Below the pieces are notes generated by a model. The model was not told where the DNA came from and ran no database searches. It saw only the letters and a program-made list of their open reading frames with translations. Positions 2,138 to 30,603 of a DNA stretch of 30,603 bases are shown here, one piece after another; position 1 is the stretch's first letter, and every line of letters starts with the position of its first letter. This stretch comes from Candidatus Moanibacter sp. (GTDB lineage Bacteria; Verrucomicrobiota; Verrucomicrobiia; Opitutales; UBA2987), in the NCBI GenBank assembly GCA_965215885.1, contig CBDCEW010000022.1, positions 1-30,603 of the forward strand, read 5' to 3'. The translations under genes and the position numbers were made by a program.

Positions 2138-2165
2138 TTGACAGAAATTGATCTCGCACTACCTT
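2138..2165 (+). promoter_or_regulatory. Sigma70-type promoter of the aspS leader
   Basis: TTGACA (2138-2143), 16 nt, TACCTT (2160-2165). Confidence 0.65.
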
Positions 2166-2176
2166 TTCGCCCCACA

Positions 2177-2260
2177 GTGATCAATCAGGTAATCAGCACG
2201 CTCAATAATAATACAGCGAACGGTGATGCTAACCGTAACGCCCACTTGAGCGTGCCCTGA
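2177..2260 (+). CDS. Putative Asn-rich attenuator leader peptide (27 aa: MINQVISTLNNNTANGDANRNAHLSVP)
   Basis: GTG 2177 to TGA 2260; 7 Asn codons including AAT AAT AAT (2204-2212) and one Asp codon; lies between the promoter and the terminator upstream of aspS. No SD seen. Confidence 0.7.
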   Translation: MINQVISTLNNNTANGDANRNAHLSVP

Positions 2261-2321
2261 CGATAGTCTGAACAAGAATTTGAAGATGAACCGTCGTGAG
2301 CGCGCTTACGGCGGTTTTTTT
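2196..2321 (+). promoter_or_regulatory. Transcription attenuator with alternative helices 1:2, 2:3 and 3:4
   Basis: 1:2 is gcacgctcaa 2196-2205 / ttgagcgtgc 2246-2255 (perfect 10 bp). 2:3 is 2247-2255 with 2300-2308 (9 bp, 2 G-U) plus 2260-2264 with 2293-2297. 3:4 is the terminator. Confidence 0.75.
2289..2321 (+). terminator. Intrinsic terminator in the aspS 5' leader
   Basis: Stem aaccgtcgtgag (2289-2300) / cttacggcggtt (2305-2316), loop cgcg, T7 run 2315-2321, ending 28 nt before the aspS ATG. Confidence 0.85.
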
Positions 2322-2349
2322 ATGTACCGATCAAAATATGGAGGCAGTC

Positions 2350-4117
2350 ATGCACAGATATCGCACACATACATGCGGTGAACTCCGCGAGGAACACGCC
2401 GGTCAGATCGTTCGCCTGAGCGGCTGGGTAGACCGAAAGAGGGATCATGGATCTCTGCTCTTCCTGGACCTCCGCGATGAATACGGAATAACGCAAGTGG
2501 TATTCTCACCCGATCACAGTTCTAGCGAACTGGCGGGTAGAGTGCCCAAAGAGTCTGTCATAACCGTGGCAGGCGAAGTTTCCGTCAGATCTCTTAATAA
2601 CCGAAACGAGAACATGGCCACAGGGGAGATTGAGCTGGCGGTGACCCAATTCACTCTGCTCTCGGAGGCTGACCCGCTCCCTTTTCCAGTGGCAGATGAG
2701 CTGCATGTCCAGGAATCTACTCGCTTGCGGTATCGATTTTTGGATCTTCGCCGGGCCGGGATGCACCACCGTATCCAGTTCAGATCACAAGTGATTTCCA
2801 GTATTCGACGGCGCATGATAGAGATGGGATTTACCGAGTTTCAAACTCCCATCCTCACCAACAGTTCTCCGGAAGGCGCCCGCGACTACCTCGTGCCGAG
2901 CCGGCTCCATCCCGGTTGCTTTTACGCGCTTCCGCAGGCGCCTCAACAGTTCAAGCAGCTCCTGATGGTCTCCGGCTTTGACCGCTACTTTCAGATTGCA
3001 CCCTGTTTTCGCGACGAGGACGCCCGTGCTGATCGCTCCCCGGGGGAATTTTATCAGCTCGACCTCGAGATGGCATTTGTCGAACGGGAAGATGTATTTT
3101 CAGGTCGTCGAGCGGCTTTTCCACGGTCTATTTCGCGAGCTGAGCGATTGGAAAGTGACGGAACCTCCGTTTCGACGCATCTCTTACGCAGACGCCATGT
3201 TGCGGTTTGGCACGGACAAGCCGGACCTGCGTTTCGGCCTTGAAATTCAGGACCTCACCGACCTGTTTGGAAGCTCCAATTTCCGGCGATTTAGAGAAAT
3301 CGTCGACGATGGCGGTGTCGTTCGTGCCCTCTGTGTCCCCGGAGTAGAGAGTCAACCGCGATCATTCTTCCAAGGCCTCGAGGACTTCATTGTGGACCGT
3401 GGAGGCGCTGGATTGGCCTATCTCCTTTGCTCTCCAGATAGTGTGAAGGGAACGATCGCGTCCGCCCTCAACCGGACGCTGACCGCCCGCATTCTGGAGA
3501 AGACCGGAGCTTCTCCAGGTTGGGCCGTGCTGTTTATTGCCGGAGAGGAGGTGATTACCGCTACACTGGCCGGCCAACTGCGTCTTCACCTCGCCGACTT
3601 GCTGCATTTACGACAGGACCGCACCTTTGAGTTCTGCTGGGTCGTGGACTTTCCGATGTATGAATGGGACGCTGAGCTTGATCGCATCACATTTTCACAT
3701 AATCCCTTCTCCATGCCCCAGGGCGGAATGGCGGCACTCGAGTCTCGGTCACCGCTGGAGATCAAGGCGTTTCAGTACGATATTGTTTGCAACGGTTTGG
3801 AGCTCTCGAGCGGCGCCATCCGCAACCATCGGCCGGACATCATGTATAAAGCCTTCGAGATCGCGGGTTACTCCGCCGATGAGGTGGACCGCAAATTTGG
3901 CGGGATGATTCGAGCCTTTCGCTACGGTGCCCCGCCCCACGGTGGAATTGCCCCTGGTATCGATCGCATCGTCATGCTCCTGGCCAACGAGCCCAACATC
4001 CGCGAAGTAATCGCGTTTCCAATGAGCCAGAACGCGCGGGATCCCCTAACGGGCGCACCCGGTAAAGTGTCGTCTGAACAGTTGCAAGCCCTCCACATCG
4101 CGGTCGCGGATCTCTAG
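2350..4117 (+). CDS. aspS: Aspartate--tRNA(Asp/Asn) ligase, non-discriminating type; one extra T at 3097-3100
   Basis: GGAGG RBS. Motifs [99 protein letters not shown]. Removing one T restores EDVFQVVE. RDHG and PPHGG are signatures associated with ND-AspRS. Confidence 0.95.
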
Positions 4118-4623: not shown

Positions 4624-5508
4624 ATGACCATGACTAAGAAAATACCTGCCGAGCCTAGCTTGGAGTATTACAAGAACCAGGCAAAGGCGCTCGTAAAGGA
4701 CCATAAGTCGAGGAAACCCGCAGCTCTTCGACGGATCCGCGACTTTCACCCCGATCACACGTCATCGCCGGAACGGGCTCTATTTACTTCAGAGGTGACG
4801 GTTCGCGACGCGCAGCTCGTAATAGCGAGAGAACATGGGTATCCCTCATGGGTTCGATTCAAGAGTGATGTCGTAGGGCGCATCTACTTACCCAAACTGT
4901 TCGAGGCAATCGAGAGGAGCGATACGTCAGGCGTGCGCGACATTCTCCGGAATCATCCCGAAATCGTCTCATTGAAACAAGATGGAGCGACTGCATTGCA
5001 CATTGCGGCCGCAGCAAACAACCGCGAAGCGGTCGATATATTGCTGGCCTACGATGCTGATCCCGACGTTCGCGACGATAAGTATGATGCGCTTCCGAGA
5101 GCGTGGGCTCACGAGTGCGGGCATACGGACTTGGCAAGACACATGGTGGCCGAGTCCAGTTCGGATGATTTGCAGCGCGCCGCCGGGTTCGGCATGACCG
5201 CCGAAGTAAAGATCAATCTGGATGAGGATCCTTCTCGCATTGATGAGGTAAGCGGGTACGGAACCGCGCTTCATTACGCGTGCCTTTGGGGATATCCGGG
5301 GGTTGCCGCGCTTCTGCTCGAGCGCGGCGCAGATCCGAATCTCACCACATGTAATGGTGATTCGGCGTTGGCGATAGTGAGGAATCAGATCGATTCAGGC
5401 GGCAAGCAAACTCCTCGGGCTTCAAAGGAGCGACGCCATGAAATCCTGGAGGGCTGCCGAGAGATCTATCAGATTCTTTTGGGTGATGGTGAAGGAGGCG
5501 ATCGATGA
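4624..5508 (+). CDS. Ankyrin-repeat protein with the same N-terminal domain as 65-1353
   Basis: AAGGA RBS; IPAEPSLEYYKNQAK...RDAQLVIAREHGYPSW; GATALHIAA, GTALHYACLWG, LLLERGADPN. Confidence 0.9.
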   Translation: MTMTKKIPAEPSLEYYKNQAKALVKDHKSRKPAALRRIRDFHPDHTSSPERALFTSEVTVRDAQLVIAREHGYPSWVRFKSDVVGRIYLPKLFEAIERSDTSGVRDILRNHPEIVSLKQDGATALHIAAAANNREAVDILLAYDADPDVRDDKYDALPRAWAHECGHTDLARHMVAESSSDDLQRAAGFGMTAEVKINLDEDPSRIDEVSGYGTALHYACLWGYPGVAALLLERGADPNLTTCNGDSALAIVRNQIDSGGKQTPRASKERRHEILEGCREIYQILLGDGEGGDR

Positions 5509-12839: not shown

Positions 12840-12981
12840 CGAAATCAGTAAATCGTGAGCAGATGACCAACAGAGTGCATGAGGCCAACAGGAAGCGCTG
12901 GGATGCGGGCTCTGAGCAGTGGGCTCGCGGTGCGGAATCCCGTGGAACTTGGCGACGTTGCTCGGCGGAACCCACCCTAGT

Positions 12982-14825
12982 CCTAAAATAAGCGCGTTTA
13001 AAGGTTGAACAGGAAACTTCGTTATTCCTAACGTTATTTGCCATGCTGGCGGTAGTTTTGCCGCCGCCACCCTTGGGCTGGTTTCATGTTTTGCTTTTTT
13101 TGAGTCATATCCGTTCTGTTTTAACGTTAGTTCTGTCCCCTTTTTTGGATACGCCGACAGTCCTTCCGTTGTGGCTGTGCGTTCGCGGTTACTTGATCTG
13201 CTACCCAGGCGACATAGATCGGAATCGCTCCCAGGTGCTGATAAAATCTCCCATCCACTCGTTCCAGCTTAAAAGCCGATAAACAATTCGGCGCCCGCTT
13301 CGGATGATTTGCGCGGGGAGCAAGATGATGGCGTGAAGGAAGCGCCGAAACTCCATCTTCACGATCTCCAACCCCCGCAGGCGGTTGGGCATGAGTAATC
13401 CATACCACGCCTTCAGGTTCCAGGCCAATGCTGTCATTACCATATAGGCCCAATTGCTCAAAAGATCATCCACGGGCATACGCATCGCATTAACCCCGTT
13501 TTTGAGTTGCTCAATAACGTTCTCCTGATCGCAGCGTTGATTCGCAAAGGCGACCACCTGCTCCTTAGTCAGGTCCCTACGATTTGTGATATAAAAAAAG
13601 TAGCGGATCTCATCAAAGAGCACTACTTCGCCCTTTTGCACACTGATGTTCTTACGCACCACCACCATCCGATAGGTCTTTTTGCACTTGTTGGGCCGAT
13701 AGTCCAACTCGGCCACACTTTCTGCCTCCAGCACCTTGTTTTCAAAACCCTTCTGGTGCACGATCCCTTCCTTCACTCGCGGCGCTTTAGCTCTCGATTC
13801 GGTCGCTATTTCATGCTTGGGCAACCGCTCCAGTTCGCTCCAGGCCGTCTCTCTGAACTCCTCGGCCAGTCCCACCACTTTGGGATGCGCATCCATTCCG
13901 AAGATAAATCCCGTTCCTTCTTCATCCCACCGATCGAAGTTTTCTGTCAACGAAAAGTCCGTATCCCCTCGCAAGCAGATTTTCCCCGCATGCGCACGCA
14001 CAAGTTCCACCGCCCGATCAATCCACTTTACGCATCCCTCATGGCTAGTCTCATTGCCCGGTCGATTCACCATGTAGAGCACTTCCCTGGTATTTGCCAA
14101 ACTCACGATCAGCGGTGCATAGCCCCAGATCCCCTTATAGCTTATTCCCATACCCCCTTTGCACTTCCCTCTCGTCTGCGCTATCGTCCCGTCCACATCG
14201 ATGAACGCCTCCTCCATGAATCCTTTTGCCTGCTTGTTCCACACCCCTTGCCGTATCCGGTTGATCCCTTCCATCAATTTTTCGATCGCGCCTTCATCAA
14301 AGCGTCGGGTGAAGTCTCCACTGGTCGTCGGATCCGGTATCCTCTGCGCTCCTAAGGCATTCAGAAAAACCTCGTCCTTGCGGCGCAATTCGATGTCTTC
14401 GAGCCGGATCCCTCCCAATAATGCGTTGTAGGCTATGTTGAGCACATGATCACTCTCATGATACGGCAGGTGGCGCTTGAGCAACTGCACGCTCTGGTCG
14501 AGCTCTTCCACCAACCCCAGTCTCTTCACCATCAGGTGAATCGCTCCTATCCCTCCACAACTCACCCCTTTGCCTCGTTCGGCCGTCTCGTAGTGGATGT
14601 TGCTCGCTTTGAACATCGGTTTGGCCTGTTCAGGCCAGCCCCGATTTCTAAGCCGATGCTTTATTCTTCTCTTGCTATTGTGGAGGTTCTTGCGGTATCT
14701 TCTTTTCACTCGAAACGTCCTTTTTTCTGGGTGGTTTTTTTGGTCGATTAACAGTTTTCCCAGTATCTAAGCGCGTTTCGAGCTTTTTATTGCGTTAGGT
14801 ATATTCCAATCACACTTGTTCGAGG
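12982..14825 (-). mobile_element. IS1380-family insertion sequence (1844 bp)
   Basis: Target duplication cctagt at 12976-12981 and 14826-14831; imperfect IRs cctaaaataagcgcg / cctcgaacaagtgtg (reverse complement), both starting CC. Confidence 0.9.
13201..14709 (-). CDS. IS1380-family DDE transposase (502 aa)
   Basis: PDPTTSGDF, FIDVDGT, GYAPL, RGDTDF, NQRCDQENVIEQLKNG, NWAYM. Confidence 0.92.
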   Translation of the reverse strand: MKRRYRKNLHNSKRRIKHRLRNRGWPEQAKPMFKASNIHYETAERGKGVSCGGIGAIHLMVKRLGLVEELDQSVQLLKRHLPYHESDHVLNIAYNALLGGIRLEDIELRRKDEVFLNALGAQRIPDPTTSGDFTRRFDEGAIEKLMEGINRIRQGVWNKQAKGFMEEAFIDVDGTIAQTRGKCKGGMGISYKGIWGYAPLIVSLANTREVLYMVNRPGNETSHEGCVKWIDRAVELVRAHAGKICLRGDTDFSLTENFDRWDEEGTGFIFGMDAHPKVVGLAEEFRETAWSELERLPKHEIATESRAKAPRVKEGIVHQKGFENKVLEAESVAELDYRPNKCKKTYRMVVVRKNISVQKGEVVLFDEIRYFFYITNRRDLTKEQVVAFANQRCDQENVIEQLKNGVNAMRMPVDDLLSNWAYMVMTALAWNLKAWYGLLMPNRLRGLEIVKMEFRRFLHAIILLPAQIIRSGRRIVYRLLSWNEWMGDFISTWERFRSMSPG

Positions 14826-15108
14826 CCTAGTTCTGTCCCCAAAAGAACTTCAGTACCTCACAGATATAGGCGACAAGCGAGTGGCTGTTCTCGGGAGCGG
14901 TGACAACTAGGGCCGCATTCGCCTTGGCCGGTCTCGGTGCAATCGTGACCTCCGTGGATATCTCACAGAATCAACTCGATGTCGCTGACTGGGAAGGCGC
15001 GCCCATGGACGGACTGCCGGAGTTCCTTCTCCTTATTGCACGTAAGAACGTAAGCGACCGGGCAACGACCTTGTAGCGCAAAGATGCCGACCGTGATATG
15101 ATTATGGG

Positions 15109-15474
15109 ATGGGAGAAAAAACGAGAGGGCGGACACGGTCGAAGCGAATCGTTCGACGAAGTCGGCAGGAGCGCAGGCGACTGATAAGCGCATACCGTCG
15201 CAGCAATCAGACGCAGAGGGCGTTTGCCCAGCGGCACGGTATCAAGTATATGACCTTTATGGGATGGCTGCGCAAGGACCGGGCCGGGCACAGAAGCAGC
15301 GGGGTAAAATCGGCGGGGGCGCGGTTTGCCGAAGTTACGGTGCAGAGCAGCGCGGTCACGGAGGATCGGATCGAGATCGTCTTAGGGGACCCGATACGGG
15401 TGGAGGTGGACTGCGGTGTTGCGGTGGAACAAGTGGCGAGTCTGGTGAAGGCGTTGAGGGAATCGGGATGCTGA
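15109..15474 (+). CDS. tnpA: IS66 accessory protein TnpA
   Basis: HTH-like SNQTQRAFAQRHGIKYMTFMGW, FAEV; first ORF of the element. Confidence 0.8.
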   Translation: MGEKTRGRTRSKRIVRRSRQERRRLISAYRRSNQTQRAFAQRHGIKYMTFMGWLRKDRAGHRSSGVKSAGARFAEVTVQSSAVTEDRIEIVLGDPIRVEVDCGVAVEQVASLVKALRESGC

Positions 15475-15818
15475 GCTTACCGGGAACGATGAAGGTTTTC
15501 CTGGCCGTGGGAGTAACGGATCTGCGAAAGAGCTTTAATGGTCTCTACGCCCTGGCGGCCAATCAGCTCAAGGAAGACCCGTTGAGCGGAGCGGTCTTTG
15601 TCTTCTGCAATCGCAGCCGGGACCGGGTCAAGATTCTGTATTGGGACGGCACGGGGTTATGGGTTTTCGCAAAGCGATTAGAGAAGGGTCGGTTCAGCTG
15701 GCCGCAGGGAGTGGACTTGAAAGATCAGAAGCTTCCATTGCGCCCTGAAGCGTTGAGCATGCTCTTGAACGGGATCGACCTGAGGGAGGGGAAGATGCGG
15801 CCCTGGTATCAGCGTTAG
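15468..15818 (+). CDS. tnpB: IS66 accessory protein TnpB
   Basis: TDLRKSFNGL, FVFCNRSRDRVKILYWDGTG, KRLEKGRF. Confidence 0.93.
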   Translation: MLSLPGTMKVFLAVGVTDLRKSFNGLYALAANQLKEDPLSGAVFVFCNRSRDRVKILYWDGTGLWVFAKRLEKGRFSWPQGVDLKDQKLPLRPEALSMLLNGIDLREGKMRPWYQR

Positions 15819-15886
15819 GTCAAAAAAAGTGATTTTTTTGAAAAAAGCATTGCTTTTCTTATTACCGTTAGTTTAGTATTGTTTTC

Positions 15887-17389
15887 ATGCCTGAAGTCGA
15901 GGTTTTGCAAACAGAGCTGGAGCAACTCCGAGAGGAGAATCGGCTTTTACGACAGAAGATCGGCTGGCTCATTAAGCGCTACTTTGGAGGCAACCAAAGC
16001 GAGCGGATCGATCCGGGACAGCTGGAATTGCTCCTGGCCGGGCTGGAGCAGGCCGAGGAAAACAAACCCGCTGAGCAAACGGCAGAGCCACCACCCGAGC
16101 CGAAGGCGCGCAAAGGAGCTGGGGCGAGGCGACAGCGTCTGCCCGAGCACCTGGAAGTCGAAGAGATCGTAATCGAACCCGAAGCGGTGAAGGTTGAACC
16201 GCAAAAGTGGCGGTTGATCGGTGAGGAAGTCACTGAAGAGTTAGATTTGCTCCCGGCCCGATTTATCAGGCGGCGCTATATACGGCGCAAATATGTATCT
16301 CGCGAAAAGCCCCAGGAACCTCCCGTGCTGGCGCCATTACCATCGCGGCTGATTGAAAAAGGGATCCCTGGAGTGGGGCTTTTGGTGCACATATTACTGA
16401 GCAAATACGTCGATCACCTGCCGTTGTATCGGCAGGAGAAGATTTTCCGGGAACGCTACGGAGTAAGGGTGGCGCGCCAGAGCATGCTCGATTGGATCCA
16501 CCAGGTAGCGCAATGGCTAAAACCCATCTACAACTACATGTGCTTACAATTGTTCGAGGGCGGTTACATCCAAGCGGACGAAACGCCCATCCGCTACCTG
16601 GATCCGGACGCAGGCAAGAAAGAGGGCTGCAGGAAAGGATACCTGTGGGTCTACGGGCGACCCGGCGGCGAGGTGCTCTACGACTGGCACACAGGCCGTG
16701 GGGTAAAATGTCTCGAGCAGTTCCTCAACGGATACGAAGGGTTGCTCCAACCCGACGGTTACGCAGCCTATGGCAGTTTCGCCCGGGAGCATAACGGGAT
16801 TACCCTGTTTGGGTGCTGGGCACACCTGCGACGCAAATTTGTGGAGGCGATGGATGAGAATCCGAAGCTGGCCGGCTGGGTGGTGCGGCAGATCCACAAT
16901 CTCTACAGAGACGAGCGCCATCTGCGCGAACAGCGGGCCGGTCCCGCCTTGCGCGAAGCCTACCGGAAAAGCCATGGTCGGATGATCGTGGAACGCTTGG
17001 GCAAAGCCTTGCCTATACTCAAACGGCGGGCCTTGCCGCGGAGCAAAATGGGTGAAGCCGTTGAGTATGCTCTGAACCAGTGGGAATCACTCAAGCGCTA
17101 CCTCGAGCATGGCAAGGTTGAAATCGACAATAACCTCATTGAGAATGCTATCCGGCCGACCGCCCTGGGAAAGAAAAACTGGATGTTCATCGGCCACCCC
17201 AAGGCCGGTTGGAGAAGCGCCGTAATTTACTCGATCATTGAGAGTTGCCGGCGGCACGCAATTGAACCATCCGCTTACCTCACTGACGTCCTCAAAAGAT
17301 TGCCGGACATGAACATCACCGAGATCGCCGAACTCGCTCCGGCGAATTGGAAGCCGACCCGAACAGGCGAACCGCTCGCAGCCTCTTGA
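15887..17389 (+). CDS. tnpC: IS66 transposase TnpC
   Basis: KYVDHLPLYRQ, QADETP, DGYAAY, CWAHLRRKF, IDNNLIENAIRP, GKKNWMF. Confidence 0.95.
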   Translation: MPEVEVLQTELEQLREENRLLRQKIGWLIKRYFGGNQSERIDPGQLELLLAGLEQAEENKPAEQTAEPPPEPKARKGAGARRQRLPEHLEVEEIVIEPEAVKVEPQKWRLIGEEVTEELDLLPARFIRRRYIRRKYVSREKPQEPPVLAPLPSRLIEKGIPGVGLLVHILLSKYVDHLPLYRQEKIFRERYGVRVARQSMLDWIHQVAQWLKPIYNYMCLQLFEGGYIQADETPIRYLDPDAGKKEGCRKGYLWVYGRPGGEVLYDWHTGRGVKCLEQFLNGYEGLLQPDGYAAYGSFAREHNGITLFGCWAHLRRKFVEAMDENPKLAGWVVRQIHNLYRDERHLREQRAGPALREAYRKSHGRMIVERLGKALPILKRRALPRSKMGEAVEYALNQWESLKRYLEHGKVEIDNNLIENAIRPTALGKKNWMFIGHPKAGWRSAVIYSIIESCRRHAIEPSAYLTDVLKRLPDMNITEIAELAPANWKPTRTGEPLAAS

Positions 17390-18048
17390 ACCCGGACACT
17401 GCCAGGATCCTCGCGCATGCCGCGATCCATAGGGCAGTTCACCGGTCGTTTACGTAATTACGGCGATTAGCATCGAAGCCAAACGAGCGTAACAGGTCCC
17501 CTTCGTTTCATAACGTTGAATTACTCACGCAACCCGAGACCTTAATAGACCAACCGGTCGGCTTCGCTTCGATGCCAGTCCTTTTGCGCTTCGTAGCTCG
17601 ACCGGCTAGACTCCATTGACGATCGACATGCGACTTCTAGTCCCGTGCAAAGGATCGGAAAATCCTGTTGATCCCATCCGGTAGATCGGCATGACGCGAA
17701 AGTCTGCGGACGGTGAATCGGCGTGGATGTCGTAGTTCGTCACTTCTGTGCAATTTGATTGTACATGTGCTGAATCCAGTAAGCTAGGATCCCCAATAGT
17801 TTACCAAATCGTCTAGATCGGCGCCACCGAGTCGCGCTGACCGATGCCGGATCAAACGAGAATGAGTAGTTGGACAGACTAGAAGTGGCGGGAGGAGTCG
17901 GATCCTTTGCCTGCTCTGCCACTTCGGCAGTTCTCAGTGGAAAATAGGCCAATTCACGCATTAGGGCCATCGAGCCGTTATCCCGCATGGATTAAAGTAT
18001 GAAGCCGTCAGGTGACTTTTCCCAAGGAAGTCGGCAAAATCTTTCTAC

Positions 18049-22788: not shown

Positions 22789-24654
22789 ATGTTAAGATGG
22801 GATGAAAGTCTAGCTGATAAGCAAGAAGATAAAAAAAGAGCTAAACAAACCCGAGGGAATCAGTCAGAAAAATCTTACCAACTGAATCCTTCGATAGATC
22901 GTTTAACTCTGCGTCTGGTCCTGCCCGAAGAGCAGGAGCGATTCAATGATCTATTGAAACAACATCATTATTTACACAGTGCGGGCAGCGCAGGAGAGAC
23001 CCTGCGCTATGTGGCGCAGATCGACGGGCAATGGATGGGCCTGCTCTTGTGGGGGGCCGCATCCTACCGGCTGAAGGATCGAGACGAATGGATCGGGAGG
23101 GACGGGGCGCAACGGCATGCACGATTGAAACTGGTAGTACAGAACCGGCGTTTTCTGATTTTGCCCGGGGTGGATCTTGCAAATTTGGCCTCCAAGACGT
23201 TGGGTATGTGCCTGAGAGTCTTAGCCGATCACTGGCAGGAGGCTTTTGGCTATCGTCCCTTAGTAGCGGAAACGTTCGTGGACCCACAGATTCACCGGGG
23301 CACTTGCTACGAAGCGAGCGGGTGGACGCCCTTGGGCTTGAGCGCGGGATATGGCCGCCAACGCGAAGATTTCTATCAACGCCATGAGCGTCCCAAGCAG
23401 ATCTGGGTCAAACCCCTCAAGGCTAATGCCCTTGAGCTTTTGCGCGCTTCAGGGCCATTGCCCGCGGCACAGAGCCAGGCGCTCAATGAAACCGATAACT
23501 CCCATGCGGTCTGCCTCAAAGTGGAACAGATGAGCAGCCTGTGGGAACGCTTCAATCAGATAGAAGACTTCCGTCGTAAAGCGGGCCTTAGATATCGGCT
23601 CGCCACGGTCCTGAGCATGATTGTGCTCGGCACGATGTGCGGCAAACAGACCCTCAAGGGCATCGTGCGCCTGGCCCATCATCTCAATCAAGCCCAATTG
23701 CGCGCCTTACGCTCCTGGAAAAACCCCAAAACAGGCCGCTATAAGGCCCCTTGCTATGATGTCTTCTATCGGGTCTTGCAAAACGTAAAGGCCGAGCTCT
23801 TCGATAAAACCCTCACCGAATTCATCTGCTTACAAGACGGCTGTTTGCCCCGCGATATTGCCGTCGACGGCAATTTGAGTAGATGTGTTGAGTAAGACCC
23901 TCAAAGGCACAAACACCGAAGAATCAAAGGCTCTGCACCTGGTGGCCGCAGTCGATCACCAAAGCGCTCAAACCTTAGCCCAAGTCGCTACCGCCGATAA
24001 ATCCAACGCGATCACCGCCGCCCAGACTCTCTTGCGAAAGATGCCCATTTTGGACGGCTCCACCTTCACCTTCGACGCCATGCATAATCAAAAAGAAACT
24101 GCCCACATCGTCGTCGAAGAACTCAGTGCTGACTATGTTATTCAAATTAAAGACAATCAGCCCAACATGCATCAATACGCTCAGAATCTCTTCAGCTCCA
24201 CCCCCTTTTTCTCCACCAAACCGTGGACAATGACCATGGGCGACTCGAAATACGTCAAATAGCAACCCATTCTCTAAGCGCTCCCTCTGCCGGCCTGCCC
24301 CATGCCCGCCAGTTCGCCTGTGTGCAACGCACCTTCCATTATCCAAACAAAGCTGAACCTTCCTCTGAACGCTCTTACTACGTAAGCAGTCTCGATCCCG
24401 CCGATTTGAGCCCTCAACAGTTCCTCTCGAAAATTCGCAACCATTGGTCGATCGAAAATAAAAATCATTACCCCAGGGATCGCTTCTTCGATGAAGATCG
24501 ATGTATGATCCGTAATCATAACGCAGCCAGAATTCTTGCTGCATGCAGGCAACTGGTTCTCAGCCTCAAGTCTTCCATGGGCGCTGAATCCACTCCCGCA
24601 CTCTGTGATGATTTCGTCTTTAACTTACATAAGGCCATCAATATCATCACCTAA
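22789..24654 (+). mobile_element. ISAs1-family transposase with DUF4338-like N-terminal domain, in three frames
   Basis: HHYL...GETLRY, RDEWIG, NRRFLILP, ETFVDP...GTCY (DUF4338-like); IAVDG|KTLKG, FDAMHNQ, IKDNQP, HGRLEIR, RNHWSIENKNHYPRD.FFDED (ISAs1). 22-nt insert at 23874-23895 and a -1 shift at C5T5 24201-24210. Ends not resolved. Confidence 0.88.
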
Positions 24655-28737: not shown

Positions 28738-29883
28738 GGGTCTACAGCAGAATCTGTGGGTGGGTAACGTCGCTTACAAGAGGAAATAGAGTCGGTGAGC
28801 ACAAGGAGAAGTCAGGGCGCTGCCCTGAATCCCGCTCCTCCACAGCCGGAGGGGCTGGTCGGTGTTTTCTTTGCATATGGGATTGAAAGGTTGAAGCACC
28901 GGGCCGTTCCGAGGATGAAAGTAGTACCGAAAATACATCCTGAACACGGAGGACCCAGTGCTCATCAAAACGCTACTGAATCGGTGCTATTGGCTCAAGA
29001 GCTTTGTTTACGCAAAGGCGAGTATGGAAATGGTGAAATCGGAGGAGGCGATTGTGGTGCAGATTGAGCCGCGCAAGAATAGTCGGGTGTGCTGTTCGGG
29101 GTGTGGCCGGACGGCCAGCGGCTACGACCACATGAGCGAGGCGAGGCATTTTGAATTTGTGCCCTTGTGGGGGATGAAGGTGTATTTTCGTTACCGCATG
29201 CGGCGGGTCAATTGCCGGCGGTGCGGGGTGAAGGTCGAAGAGGTGCCCTGGGCCAAGGGCAAGAGTCATCTGAGTTGGCCAATGCAATGGTTTCTGGCCC
29301 AGTGGGCGAGGCGCTTGAGCTGGGAAGAGACGGCAAGGGTTTTTCGCACGAACTGGCGCAACGTCTTCGAGTCGGTCGAGGCGATGGTGCGGTGGGGGCT
29401 CAAACGGCGCGATATGAGCGGGATTGAGGCGATCGGAGTCGATGAGGTGCAGTATCATCGAGGCCATCACTATCTCACCGTGGTCTACCAGCTTGACGAG
29501 GGGCGGCGGCGGCTATTGGGCGTATTCAATAAGCGCAACGTAAAATCGCTCTTGCGTTTTTTCTGGGAATTGGGAGCGCAAAAGAGCAGCCAGATCCTCT
29601 ACGTCTGCTCGGATCTGTGGAAGCCTTACCTCAAAGTGATCAAGAAAAAGGCACCCCAGGCGCTGCACATCCTCGATCGCTTCCACTTGGTAGCCAACCT
29701 GAACAAGGCCCTCAATGAGATTCGTGCTGCGGAAGCCAGGCGATTGCAACGGGACGGCTACATCAACGTGCTGGTCAAAAGCAAATACTGTTTCTTGAAA
29801 AATCCGCAAAATCTCACCCCCACCCAACAGATCCGCCTCAAGGAGGTGCTCCAATACGATCTGAAGAGCGTGCGGGCCTATCT
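28738..29883 (+). mobile_element. ISL3-family element (left part), interrupted by another IS
   Basis: Left end gggtctacagcagaatctgtgg; transposase from GTG 28958 with CSGC/CRRC zinc finger, IGVDE, CSDLWKPY, DRFHLV; similarity stops after KSVRAYL. Confidence 0.88.
28958..29883 (+). pseudogene. ISL3 transposase, interrupted
   Basis: GGAGG RBS; motifs as above; the ORF tail to 29947 comes from the inserted element. Confidence 0.85.
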
Positions 29884-30603
29884 AGACCTTATCCGAAAAG
29901 CTACTGATTGGCCGCAAAGAGGCGCAAAAGGCGCAAGAAAAACTTGAGAAAAATCATTTTTTGGCTTGATAAAAAGTGTCGCAACATGCTAGTGTTTAAC
30001 AACTTAAGATTAAGAAAGGAGTTAAACATGCCAACATGTGCGACAGAGGAGAACAAAAGCGATAAGACGCCCCTTAGCAACCTCATTCTGCCGGTTCCAG
30101 ACACGGATTTCCGTGATTTTCTGGATGAAGTTGAAGAATTGGCCGGGTTCGCGGCGCAAATCATCGAGGCGATCGAGAAGGATCTGGACGCCCATGCGCG
30201 TGAGAAGAAGAAACTTCGATTGGAAGATCGCAGGTTCTTTGAAGGGCGCACAGCGGAGCTGCCGGAGCTGGACATCGAGGAGGAGAATATTCTGGCTGCT
30301 GAATTGAATCTTGGGGCAGGCCGGCCGCGGATGCCGGCTTATGCGGTATACGTGTTCGTGATGATTCGAGGGTTTCTGGGTTCGTTGACCACGAAACCGG
30401 CACGGCGGTTTGTGCGCGAGTCGATGAGCTTGTACGGATTTTTGCAGAGCGGGGGACTGAGAATGCCGGCGGTGACGACGATTCTGGAGAACGTGAACCT
30501 GGTCAGCCATACGACCCGCGAGTTGATCTTTGATAAACAGATTGGGTTTATCCTCCAGGAGCAATGGGACGATTTCGGGAAGCTGACGATCGATAGCACC
30601 TCG
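29884..30603 (+). mobile_element. IS5/ISNCY-like element nested in ISL3, running off the window
   Basis: Abrupt junction at ctag (29882-29885), AT-rich leader, then a transposase-like ORF; exact end uncertain. Confidence 0.65.
30028..30603 (+). CDS. DDE transposase (IS5/ISNCY-like), 5' part; missing from the ORF track
   Basis: AAGGAG RBS and ATG 30028, open for 192 codons to the window end: MPTCATEENK...IEKDLD...GRPRMPA...TTILEN...LTIDSTS (DST is the likely first catalytic Asp). Confidence 0.75.
   Translation, partial: MPTCATEENKSDKTPLSNLILPVPDTDFRDFLDEVEELAGFAAQIIEAIEKDLDAHAREKKKLRLEDRRFFEGRTAELPELDIEEENILAAELNLGAGRPRMPAYAVYVFVMIRGFLGSLTTKPARRFVRESMSLYGFLQSGGLRMPAVTTILENVNLVSHTTRELIFDKQIGFILQEQWDDFGKLTIDSTS

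Follow-up and report, generated by a model that had tools for sequence, protein, structure and literature searches.

Background

Which signal controls the second aspartyl-tRNA synthetase (AspRS) gene, aspS, of Candidatus Moanibacter sp. (Verrucomicrobiota, Opitutales)? The gene lies on contig CBDCEW010000022.1 of assembly GCA_965215885.1, whose positions 1 to 30,603 were analysed on the forward strand (the window, 30,603 nucleotides (nt) in all). An initial annotation of this DNA had read the region in front of aspS as a leader-peptide attenuator sensing asparagine (Asn). Our analysis supports this reading: the element is probably a classical ribosome-mediated transcription attenuator with Asn control codons. 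A short upstream open reading frame (uORF), its Asn codons, its frame, a promoter-like site and the competing RNA helices are all conserved in homologous leaders, and the expected switch is reproduced in a folding model.

Organisation of the leader

All features of the leader lie on the forward strand. The putative promoter (2138-2165) is composed of a -35 box TTGACA (2138-2143), a 16-nt gap and a -10 box TACCTT (2160-2165), at the coordinates first annotated; it matches the E. coli consensus poorly and is missed by a generic sigma-70 scan. The uORF, presumably translated, extends over 27 codons from GTG2177, located 11 nt behind the -10 box, to TGA2260, and contains the seven Asn codons previously counted (codons 3, 10, 11, 12, 15, 19 and 21). 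Segment 1 (2185-2205, with an outer arm at 2185-2189 and an inner arm at 2196-2205) can pair with segment 2 (2246-2262), which covers the end of the uORF including its stop codon. The inner helix of this hairpin 1:2 is the perfect 10-bp helix already noticed (2196-2205/2246-2255), to which we add an outer helix containing the stop codon (2185-2189/2256-2260). Alternatively, segment 2 can pair with segment 3 (2291-2308), which supplies the terminator with its 5' arm and its loop. For this antiterminator 2:3, the main pairing first proposed (2247-2255 with 2300-2308) stands, within 2247-2256 paired with 2299-2308, whereas the lower half consists of 2258-2262 with 2292-2296 and not of 2260-2264 with 2293-2297. 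Finally, the predicted intrinsic terminator 3:4 (2288-2321) has its stem at 2288-2317 and a T7 tail at 2315-2321 which, as annotated, ends 28 nt 5' of the start codon of aspS (ATG2350). A Shine-Dalgarno-like sequence is found at 2339-2344, and GGAGG or GGAG is present likewise before most homologues. The window leader has a folding energy of -51 kcal/mol (z = -3.96; none of 200 shuffled sequences was equally stable), with predicted energies of -28.4, -22.8 and -18.2 kcal/mol for hairpin 1:2, the antiterminator and the terminator, respectively.

Such an arrangement is rare in the host. Of the 106,743 short segments ending in a stop codon in the entire 6.36-Mb genome, 32 were comparably Asn-rich and two of these 32 had a terminator behind them; among the latter, the window leader alone has a promoter-like site. 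A genome scan that also required this site retained only the window leader and a methionine (Met)-rich leader before metG. An Asn-rich open reading frame (ORF) with a hairpin on host contig C100, before a superoxide-dismutase-like gene, has neither promoter-like site nor similarity and was rejected as a chance occurrence. Positions 1900-2408 are repeated without any difference by a contig of another public run, which may represent the source sample itself and thus confirms the letters only.

Conservation of the leader in relatives

A second aspS copy is carried by 33 of 168 Latescibacterota genomes, and the upstream DNA of 32 of these 33 carriers was examined, the remaining locus (G164) being cut inside the gene. 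Loci with at least 200 nt upstream were scored with a rule requiring a uORF with a pair of adjacent Asn, at least three Asn and at least 13% Asn, and a terminator within 110 nt. By this rule, which was set after positives had been seen and was applied to carriers that are kin, an Asn uORF with a terminator precedes 30 of the 31 scorable Latescibacterota second aspS genes versus none of 209 control aspS loci (77 from GTDB, 72 from metagenomes, 28 of the same phylum, 29 native genes of the same order and three native Latescibacterota genes). The sole miss (L239) matches model R1 over its full length, and a short locus (L127) has a leader of the type called B below. Model R1 also matched two held-out leaders at full length (E-values of 5e-9 and 5e-8) and gave no full-length match in the 77 GTDB control loci.

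The leaders of 30 loci fall into type A alone (11 loci), types A and B in tandem (15), type B alone (one) and a third type (three); the locus with type B alone is situated at a contig edge and its type-A unit is found on another contig. Relatives with tandem units include L126, L128, L130-L132, L134-L136, L138, L140-L142, L144, L145, L150 and L239, and in tandem loci the second unit has a mixed run of Asn and aspartate (Asp) codons and a separate Shine-Dalgarno-like site immediately after the first terminator. The window leader belongs to type A. When it was aligned with 25 type-A homologues (the degenerate L150 was left out), the length of the uORF was a multiple of three in all 26 leaders (63-87 nt) while the spacer between stop codon and terminator varied freely from 25 to 34 nt. 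The Asn-rich frame is likewise kept in 26 of 26: Asn accounts for 131 of 585 codons (22.4%; 81 AAT and 50 AAC), compared with 2.2% in AspRS, and in 24 of 26 leaders exactly eight codons separate the last Asn from the stop. The promoter arrangement TTGACR-N16/17-TAnnnT is kept in 24 of 26 leaders, and in 17 it lies 8 nt before the first ATG. The window leader is 52-63% identical to its type-A relatives, and it is the one significant match in the host genome (E = 4e-6) to a profile from which it had been left out; it is still matched when the nearest relative is removed too (E = 1e-4).

One further relative (L261, G210:C1:3148786-3148915) has a complete type-A leader joined to the middle of aspS, about 180 first codons being missing by deletion or misassembly.

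RNA structure and proposed mechanism

The upstream alignment suggested by the initial annotation shows terminator and antiterminator to be conserved, with few compensatory changes. The terminator is paired in 99.7% of the cells of the alignment and two of its 11 pairs have a two-sided change, both contributed by the window, a score reached by none of 500 shuffles; the antiterminator is paired in 97.9%, with a two-sided change in two of 13 pairs (2 of 500 shuffles), and is the structure picked by the RNAalifold consensus without prompting. Slid controls were far lower for all helices, but the structures had been derived from these same sequences and the independent changes are few.

The effect of a stalled ribosome was then modelled with a footprint reaching 12 nt beyond the A site, and the picture holds for 9-15 nt. 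In the window, the modelled terminator probability is 0.04-0.22 with the ribosome at Asn10, Asn11, Asn12 or Asn15 and 0.62 at Asn19, and it rises to 0.97-1.0 at Asn3, at Asn21, at the stop codon or without a ribosome. The controlling zone of the uORF would therefore comprise Asn codons 10, 11, 12 and 15, codon 19 being borderline. For the 25 homologues, the antiterminator of the modelled nascent chain reaches 0.79-0.98 for every Asn stall and 0 at the stop. The three type-B leaders that were folded are predicted to switch likewise, and their conserved C-terminal codons coincide with the antiterminator arm.

The proposed mechanism is as follows. Transcription would start a few bases before the uORF. 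When charged tRNA(Asn) is plentiful, the ribosome would reach the stop codon and cover segment 2, so that the terminator could form and aspS would not be transcribed. When Asn-tRNA is scarce, the ribosome would wait at Asn10-15 (or Asn19) and cover segment 1; segment 2 would then pair with the 5' arm of the terminator, and RNA polymerase would read into aspS. If no ribosome were present, both 1:2 and 3:4 would form and transcription would stop. That a stall frees 2:3 and a ribosome at the stop allows 3:4, as first suggested, is thus borne out in the folding model. The extra AspRS would load Asp onto tRNA(Asn), and GatCAB would amidate it, so that asparagine would be made on the tRNA, a route that could be used when free asparagine is lacking for asparaginyl-tRNA synthetase (AsnRS).

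The downstream gene

The window aspS (2350-4117), of alphaproteobacterial type and presumed non-discriminating, is indeed a second copy: an intact native aspS, 51% identical, is present elsewhere in the host genome. The gene is split over two frames by one extra base at a T4 run near 3097-3100, both halves aligning over their full length without internal stops; among the contigs of public runs compared, none spans this position. An assembly error is plausible, near-identical insertion-sequence (IS) copies in the assembly differing by about one gap per kb, and the ankyrin gene upstream is also split; no trend was found between the indel rate and the distance from the contig end. The frameshift may be either an assembly error or decay.

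The initial annotation had also pointed to the RDHG and GAPPHGG signatures, associated with non-discriminating enzymes. They fail to distinguish the two host copies: both are present in the native host AspRS and in three of three native Latescibacterota enzymes, and so do not explain the regulation of this copy. In alignments to structures 4WJ3 and 1C0A, the anticodon-binding motif of the window enzyme has a His, as in the Asp/Asn ligase of P. aeruginosa, where the E. coli enzyme has Leu; Gly83, which we take to be a second determinant of non-discrimination in P. aeruginosa AspRS, is absent (RSLN replaces RPEG). A non-discriminating activity is better supported by the fact that the window's enzyme type is the sole AspRS in two genomes without asnS, and we infer such an activity for the window copy.

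Asparagine pathway genes

The genes whose presence the initial annotation left to be verified (gatCAB, asnS and another aspS) were all found: the host genome (an assembly 90% complete with 5.5% contamination) has asnS, glnS and gatCAB beside its native aspS, gatCAB lying outside the operon of the window aspS. The proposal that the leader responds to the product of the two-step pathway is consistent with the presence of gatCAB but has to be amended on one point, since the host also has AsnRS and its Asn-tRNA does not come from the two-step route alone. No asnA was found in the 90% complete genome, and its two AsnB-like genes remain below the cut-off of the asparagine synthase B model PRK09431 and are better matched by a model for an amidotransferase of a polysaccharide system. 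ARAGORN found neither tRNA-Asn nor tRNA-Phe in the host assembly; its calls do include a tRNA-Sec and a single one whose anticodon is TTA.

Among the 33 Latescibacterota carriers, 32 have asnS, and the five tested, like the host, have both gatB and glnS, so that GatCAB is best explained as serving Asn. The four tRNA-Asn found among relatives all have the U1-A72 pair, which is described as required for GatCAB in the part of PMC4206432 consulted. AsnB-like genes occur in 8 of the 33 carriers versus 71 of 135 non-carriers, a trend only, as the genomes are kin and not independent and many of these genes are not true synthetases. Altogether, the gene content supports the view that the leader would read a shortage of Asn-tRNA in a cell possessing both routes and call up the extra synthetase.

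Origin of the cassette

The three best GTDB matches to the window AspRS come from Latescibacterota (74-75%), and the nearest Latescibacterota copy is 78% identical. Within the host's order, 400 other genomes were searched without finding this type of second aspS, and none of 40 close relatives has it. In other orders of the host phylum, 198 of 400 genomes have an aspS of alphaproteobacterial type, at most 71% identical; these genes branch apart from the window copy and none of the 28 scorable ones has the leader. No leader was found either at 80 loci of 60-69% identity in a metagenome scan. In two trees built on the N-terminal half of AspRS only (44 and 33 selected rows), the window copy nests in the clade of Latescibacterota second copies (support 97/92 and 98/96 in one analysis, weaker in the other) and the native host AspRS groups with its own family. 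Named rows placed beside those of its phylum-mates point to a verrucomicrobial host, as the lineage states. Judging from these comparisons, promoter, leader and gene moved together as one cassette. The direction of transfer was probably from Latescibacterota to the host, because the window copy nests within the Latescibacterota clade, a placement read from the trees with no formal clade test. The third-position GC content of the copy (GC3, 0.63) does not date the transfer.

Bin contamination was considered and rejected, the contig sharing IS copies at 99.7% with contigs carrying asnS and others. Its tetranucleotide profile is typical of the genome (34th from the bottom of 104).

Alternative explanations

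Several observations weigh against a working Asn attenuator. The covariation rests on two or three cells per helix, and hairpin 1:2 is paired in only 83.6% of cells (94% for the outer and 76% for the inner helix) with a covariation not above that of shuffles (73 of 500). The modelled switch is flipped by a stall anywhere in codons 4-18, and not by stalls at Asn3 or Asn21. In several homologues (e.g. L125, L129, L132, L147 and L149) the terminator wins at full-length equilibrium despite a stall, so that the switch there needs co-transcriptional folding. All the carriers' homologous leaders belong to one clade. The window uORF starts with GTG, no Shine-Dalgarno site was found before it, and the position of the first ATG of most relatives reads ACA, the start being the following GTG; as there is no space for a Shine-Dalgarno site, initiation must be nearly leaderless. 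The break in aspS is a further point, as is the question of need: the native AspRS, with the same anticodon-motif His, also looks non-discriminating, and the host has two AsnB-like genes. One alternative is that the attenuator is real in the donor lineage and silent in its present host, with a poorly translated GTG uORF, so that 1:2 and 3:4 would always form, and a decaying aspS. Beyond the frameshift and the start codon without a Shine-Dalgarno site, this explanation draws on the modelled terminator probability of 1.0 without a ribosome, on the absence of the copy from the 400 genomes of the host's order, on the split ankyrin gene and ParE-like remnants nearby, and on the relative G210, whose leader is joined to a 5'-truncated aspS. 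We nevertheless consider it improbable: the break is a single base in a T4 run, in an assembly whose near-identical IS copies differ by about one gap per kb, and leaves two halves that align over their whole length without stops; the host relies little on Shine-Dalgarno sites (15% of 1,046 starts versus 9% at random); and the leader, although about 40% diverged, has kept its frame, its Asn codons and its compensatory pairs. Activity of the attenuator in the host is what we would expect.

The other alternatives concern what is sensed, or whether anything is. Ordinary feedback on AspRS, in which the leader would sense Asp-tRNA(Asp) together with Asn-tRNA(Asn), or mainly how much aspartylated tRNA is available, could be suggested by Asp17 within the controlling zone and by the mixed Asn/Asp runs in the type-B leaders of relatives; the type-A leaders, however, have 4.3% Asp against 22.4% Asn and the native aspS genes have no leader, which makes this quite unlikely. 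Nor do we give much weight to an arrest peptide of the TnaC/SecM kind, stalling the ribosome on a ligand or stress with the Asn codons being incidental. The C-terminal residues are conserved, as LRVF among type-A leaders and as RARWRWP among those of type B, but the corresponding codons form the 5' arm of the antiterminator and the type-B DNA is invariant even at synonymous sites, so that a constraint on the RNA is favoured; moreover, the window peptide ends differently (LSVP) yet keeps the base pairs, and a ribosome at the last codons is predicted to give termination, not read-through. It is scarcely credible, finally, that the uORF is merely the tail of a 180-codon frame (1718-2260) with which it is in phase, or that the hairpin simply ends the transcription of upstream genes or of a small RNA. 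The promoter does fit the E. coli consensus poorly, but the long frame has no Pfam match, the homologues are unrelated upstream of the promoter and conserved in promoter and leader, and leader and gene are associated at 30 of 31 loci against 0 of 209. The Asn-responsive attenuator thus keeps our preference.

Relation to known systems

Classical leader-peptide attenuators include trpL, hisL, pheL, thrL, leuL and ilv, and pheST for a synthetase. Like them, the window leader has a uORF with control codons, a predicted hairpin 1:2, an antiterminator 2:3, an intrinsic terminator 3:4 and a stop codon in segment 2; the uORF, the terminator and the mutually exclusive antiterminator of the trp/his/pheST geometry first invoked are therefore all found. 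It differs in having Asn as control codon, a nearly leaderless uORF and a signal amino acid other than the one its enzyme activates, and its relatives often have two units in series. An Asn T-box reportedly controls aspS2-gatCAB in Clostridium acetobutylicum, as described by Saad and colleagues in 2012. That system shares the logic by which a shortage of charged tRNA(Asn) leads to an extra AspRS and tRNA-dependent asparagine synthesis; T-box RNA, though, binds uncharged tRNA directly, whereas in the window the ribosome would be the sensor, no T-box is matched and gatCAB lies outside the operon. The Rfam 'aspS' RNA motif of Actinobacteria also precedes tRNA-synthetase genes. None of 4,227 Rfam families, T-box and aspS motif included, reached its cut-off in the window and none was found at E<=1 in nine homologous loci; the only model touched was His_leader (RF00514, 24.1 bits, E 0.1, cut-off 49).

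A related published case is uORFC-8-2, a leader with Cys codons before cysS in Rhodobacterales, which according to the parts consulted of Brewer et al. 2021 (PMC8632094) is likewise a predicted ribosome-mediated attenuator with a terminator before an aminoacyl-tRNA synthetase gene. Unlike the window leader, it senses the enzyme's own amino acid and precedes a housekeeping gene, and its sequence is unrelated. As to the enzyme, Deinococcus radiodurans and Thermus thermophilus possess AsnRS, GlnRS and GatCAB together with a second, non-discriminating AspRS acquired sideways; that AspRS is archaeal-type whereas the window copy is a full-length bacterial enzyme of alphaproteobacterial type, and the sections consulted mention no attenuator for it (PMC4206432). 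The initial annotation knew of no described Asn-sensing attenuator, and none was found in the literature searched, most subscription papers lying outside its coverage. The main texts consulted of PMC8632094, PMC11109978 and PMC5737381 contain no aspS or Asn leader entry (the supplements of the last two may list one), and the parts consulted of PMC2494555 and PMC4833913 no Asn leader. We consider it unlikely, though conceivable, that a prediction of such a leader has already been published.

Other leaders and neighbourhood of the gene

The Met-rich leader of the host genome (L273, C74:549-720, forward strand, with an identical copy on the reverse strand of C60) is composed of a promoter-like site, a 25-codon uORF with five Met and a terminator before a short-type metG, and is likely, from its sequence, to be a Met leader attenuator present in two copies. 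Weak matches of model R1 uncovered further leaders in other Latescibacterota: a glutamine (Gln)-rich uORF with two QQQ runs and a terminator directly before glnS, a candidate Gln attenuator (L264, G166:C149, about 3100-3250); the end of a uORF rich in lysine (Lys) and Asn with a terminator before lysS (L270, G141:C474:3072-3202, reverse strand); and an isoleucine/leucine/valine (Ile/Leu/Val) leader before ilvB (L265 and L266, in G115 and G116), whose terminator resembles that of the Asn leader. With codons matching glnS, ilvB, lysS and metG, these organisms appear to use the mechanism for synthetases generally. A short uORF with a terminator of the same style also precedes an ORF resembling an ABC transporter ATPase (L267, G084:C30), and L263 and L268 contain another conserved uORF-terminator unit with no clear downstream gene.

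In the window itself, an ankyrin-repeat gene is split over three frames at 65-1353 and has an intact-looking paralogue at 4624-5508. Toxin-antitoxin remnants at 1529-1760 comprise a short start that resembles an antitoxin, along with a C-terminal fragment similar to ParE (Pfam match below the cut-off, E 4e-4). Insertion sequences occupy 12977-14830, 15050-17454, 22789-24654 and 28958-30564, the first two being present in many near-identical genome copies, and the rest of the contig is, by eye, rich in GNAT-like and small accessory ORFs.

Conclusions

Beyond this locus, we propose a wider interpretation which we hold to be evenly poised. The leader would represent a so far undescribed Asn-specific attenuator class that moves between phyla in the form of a self-contained cassette for rescue from starvation, made up of a promoter, an almost leaderless Asn uORF, the switch and an extra non-discriminating AspRS. 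What it senses would be the product at the end of tRNA-dependent asparagine synthesis, not the substrate of the enzyme. Where two such units are stacked, as in roughly half of the donor clade, they would sharpen the response, and the class would be part of a larger set of Gln, Lys, Met and Ile/Leu/Val leaders doing the job that T-boxes do in Firmicutes.

The attenuation mechanism itself is textbook; the novelty would be the amino acid sensed. If this reading is true, asparagine joins the amino acids read by leader-peptide attenuation, as a ribosome-based counterpart to the Asn T-box. The self-contained element, about 150 nt long, lends itself to work in a laboratory host and could be used to report how far Asn-tRNA is charged, and the tandem form of its relatives would make it possible to ask directly whether a response becomes sharper when attenuators are stacked. 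For the organisms that carry it, the leader would provide a reason for keeping a second AspRS and two ways of making Asn-tRNA, of which the indirect one may be boosted on demand.

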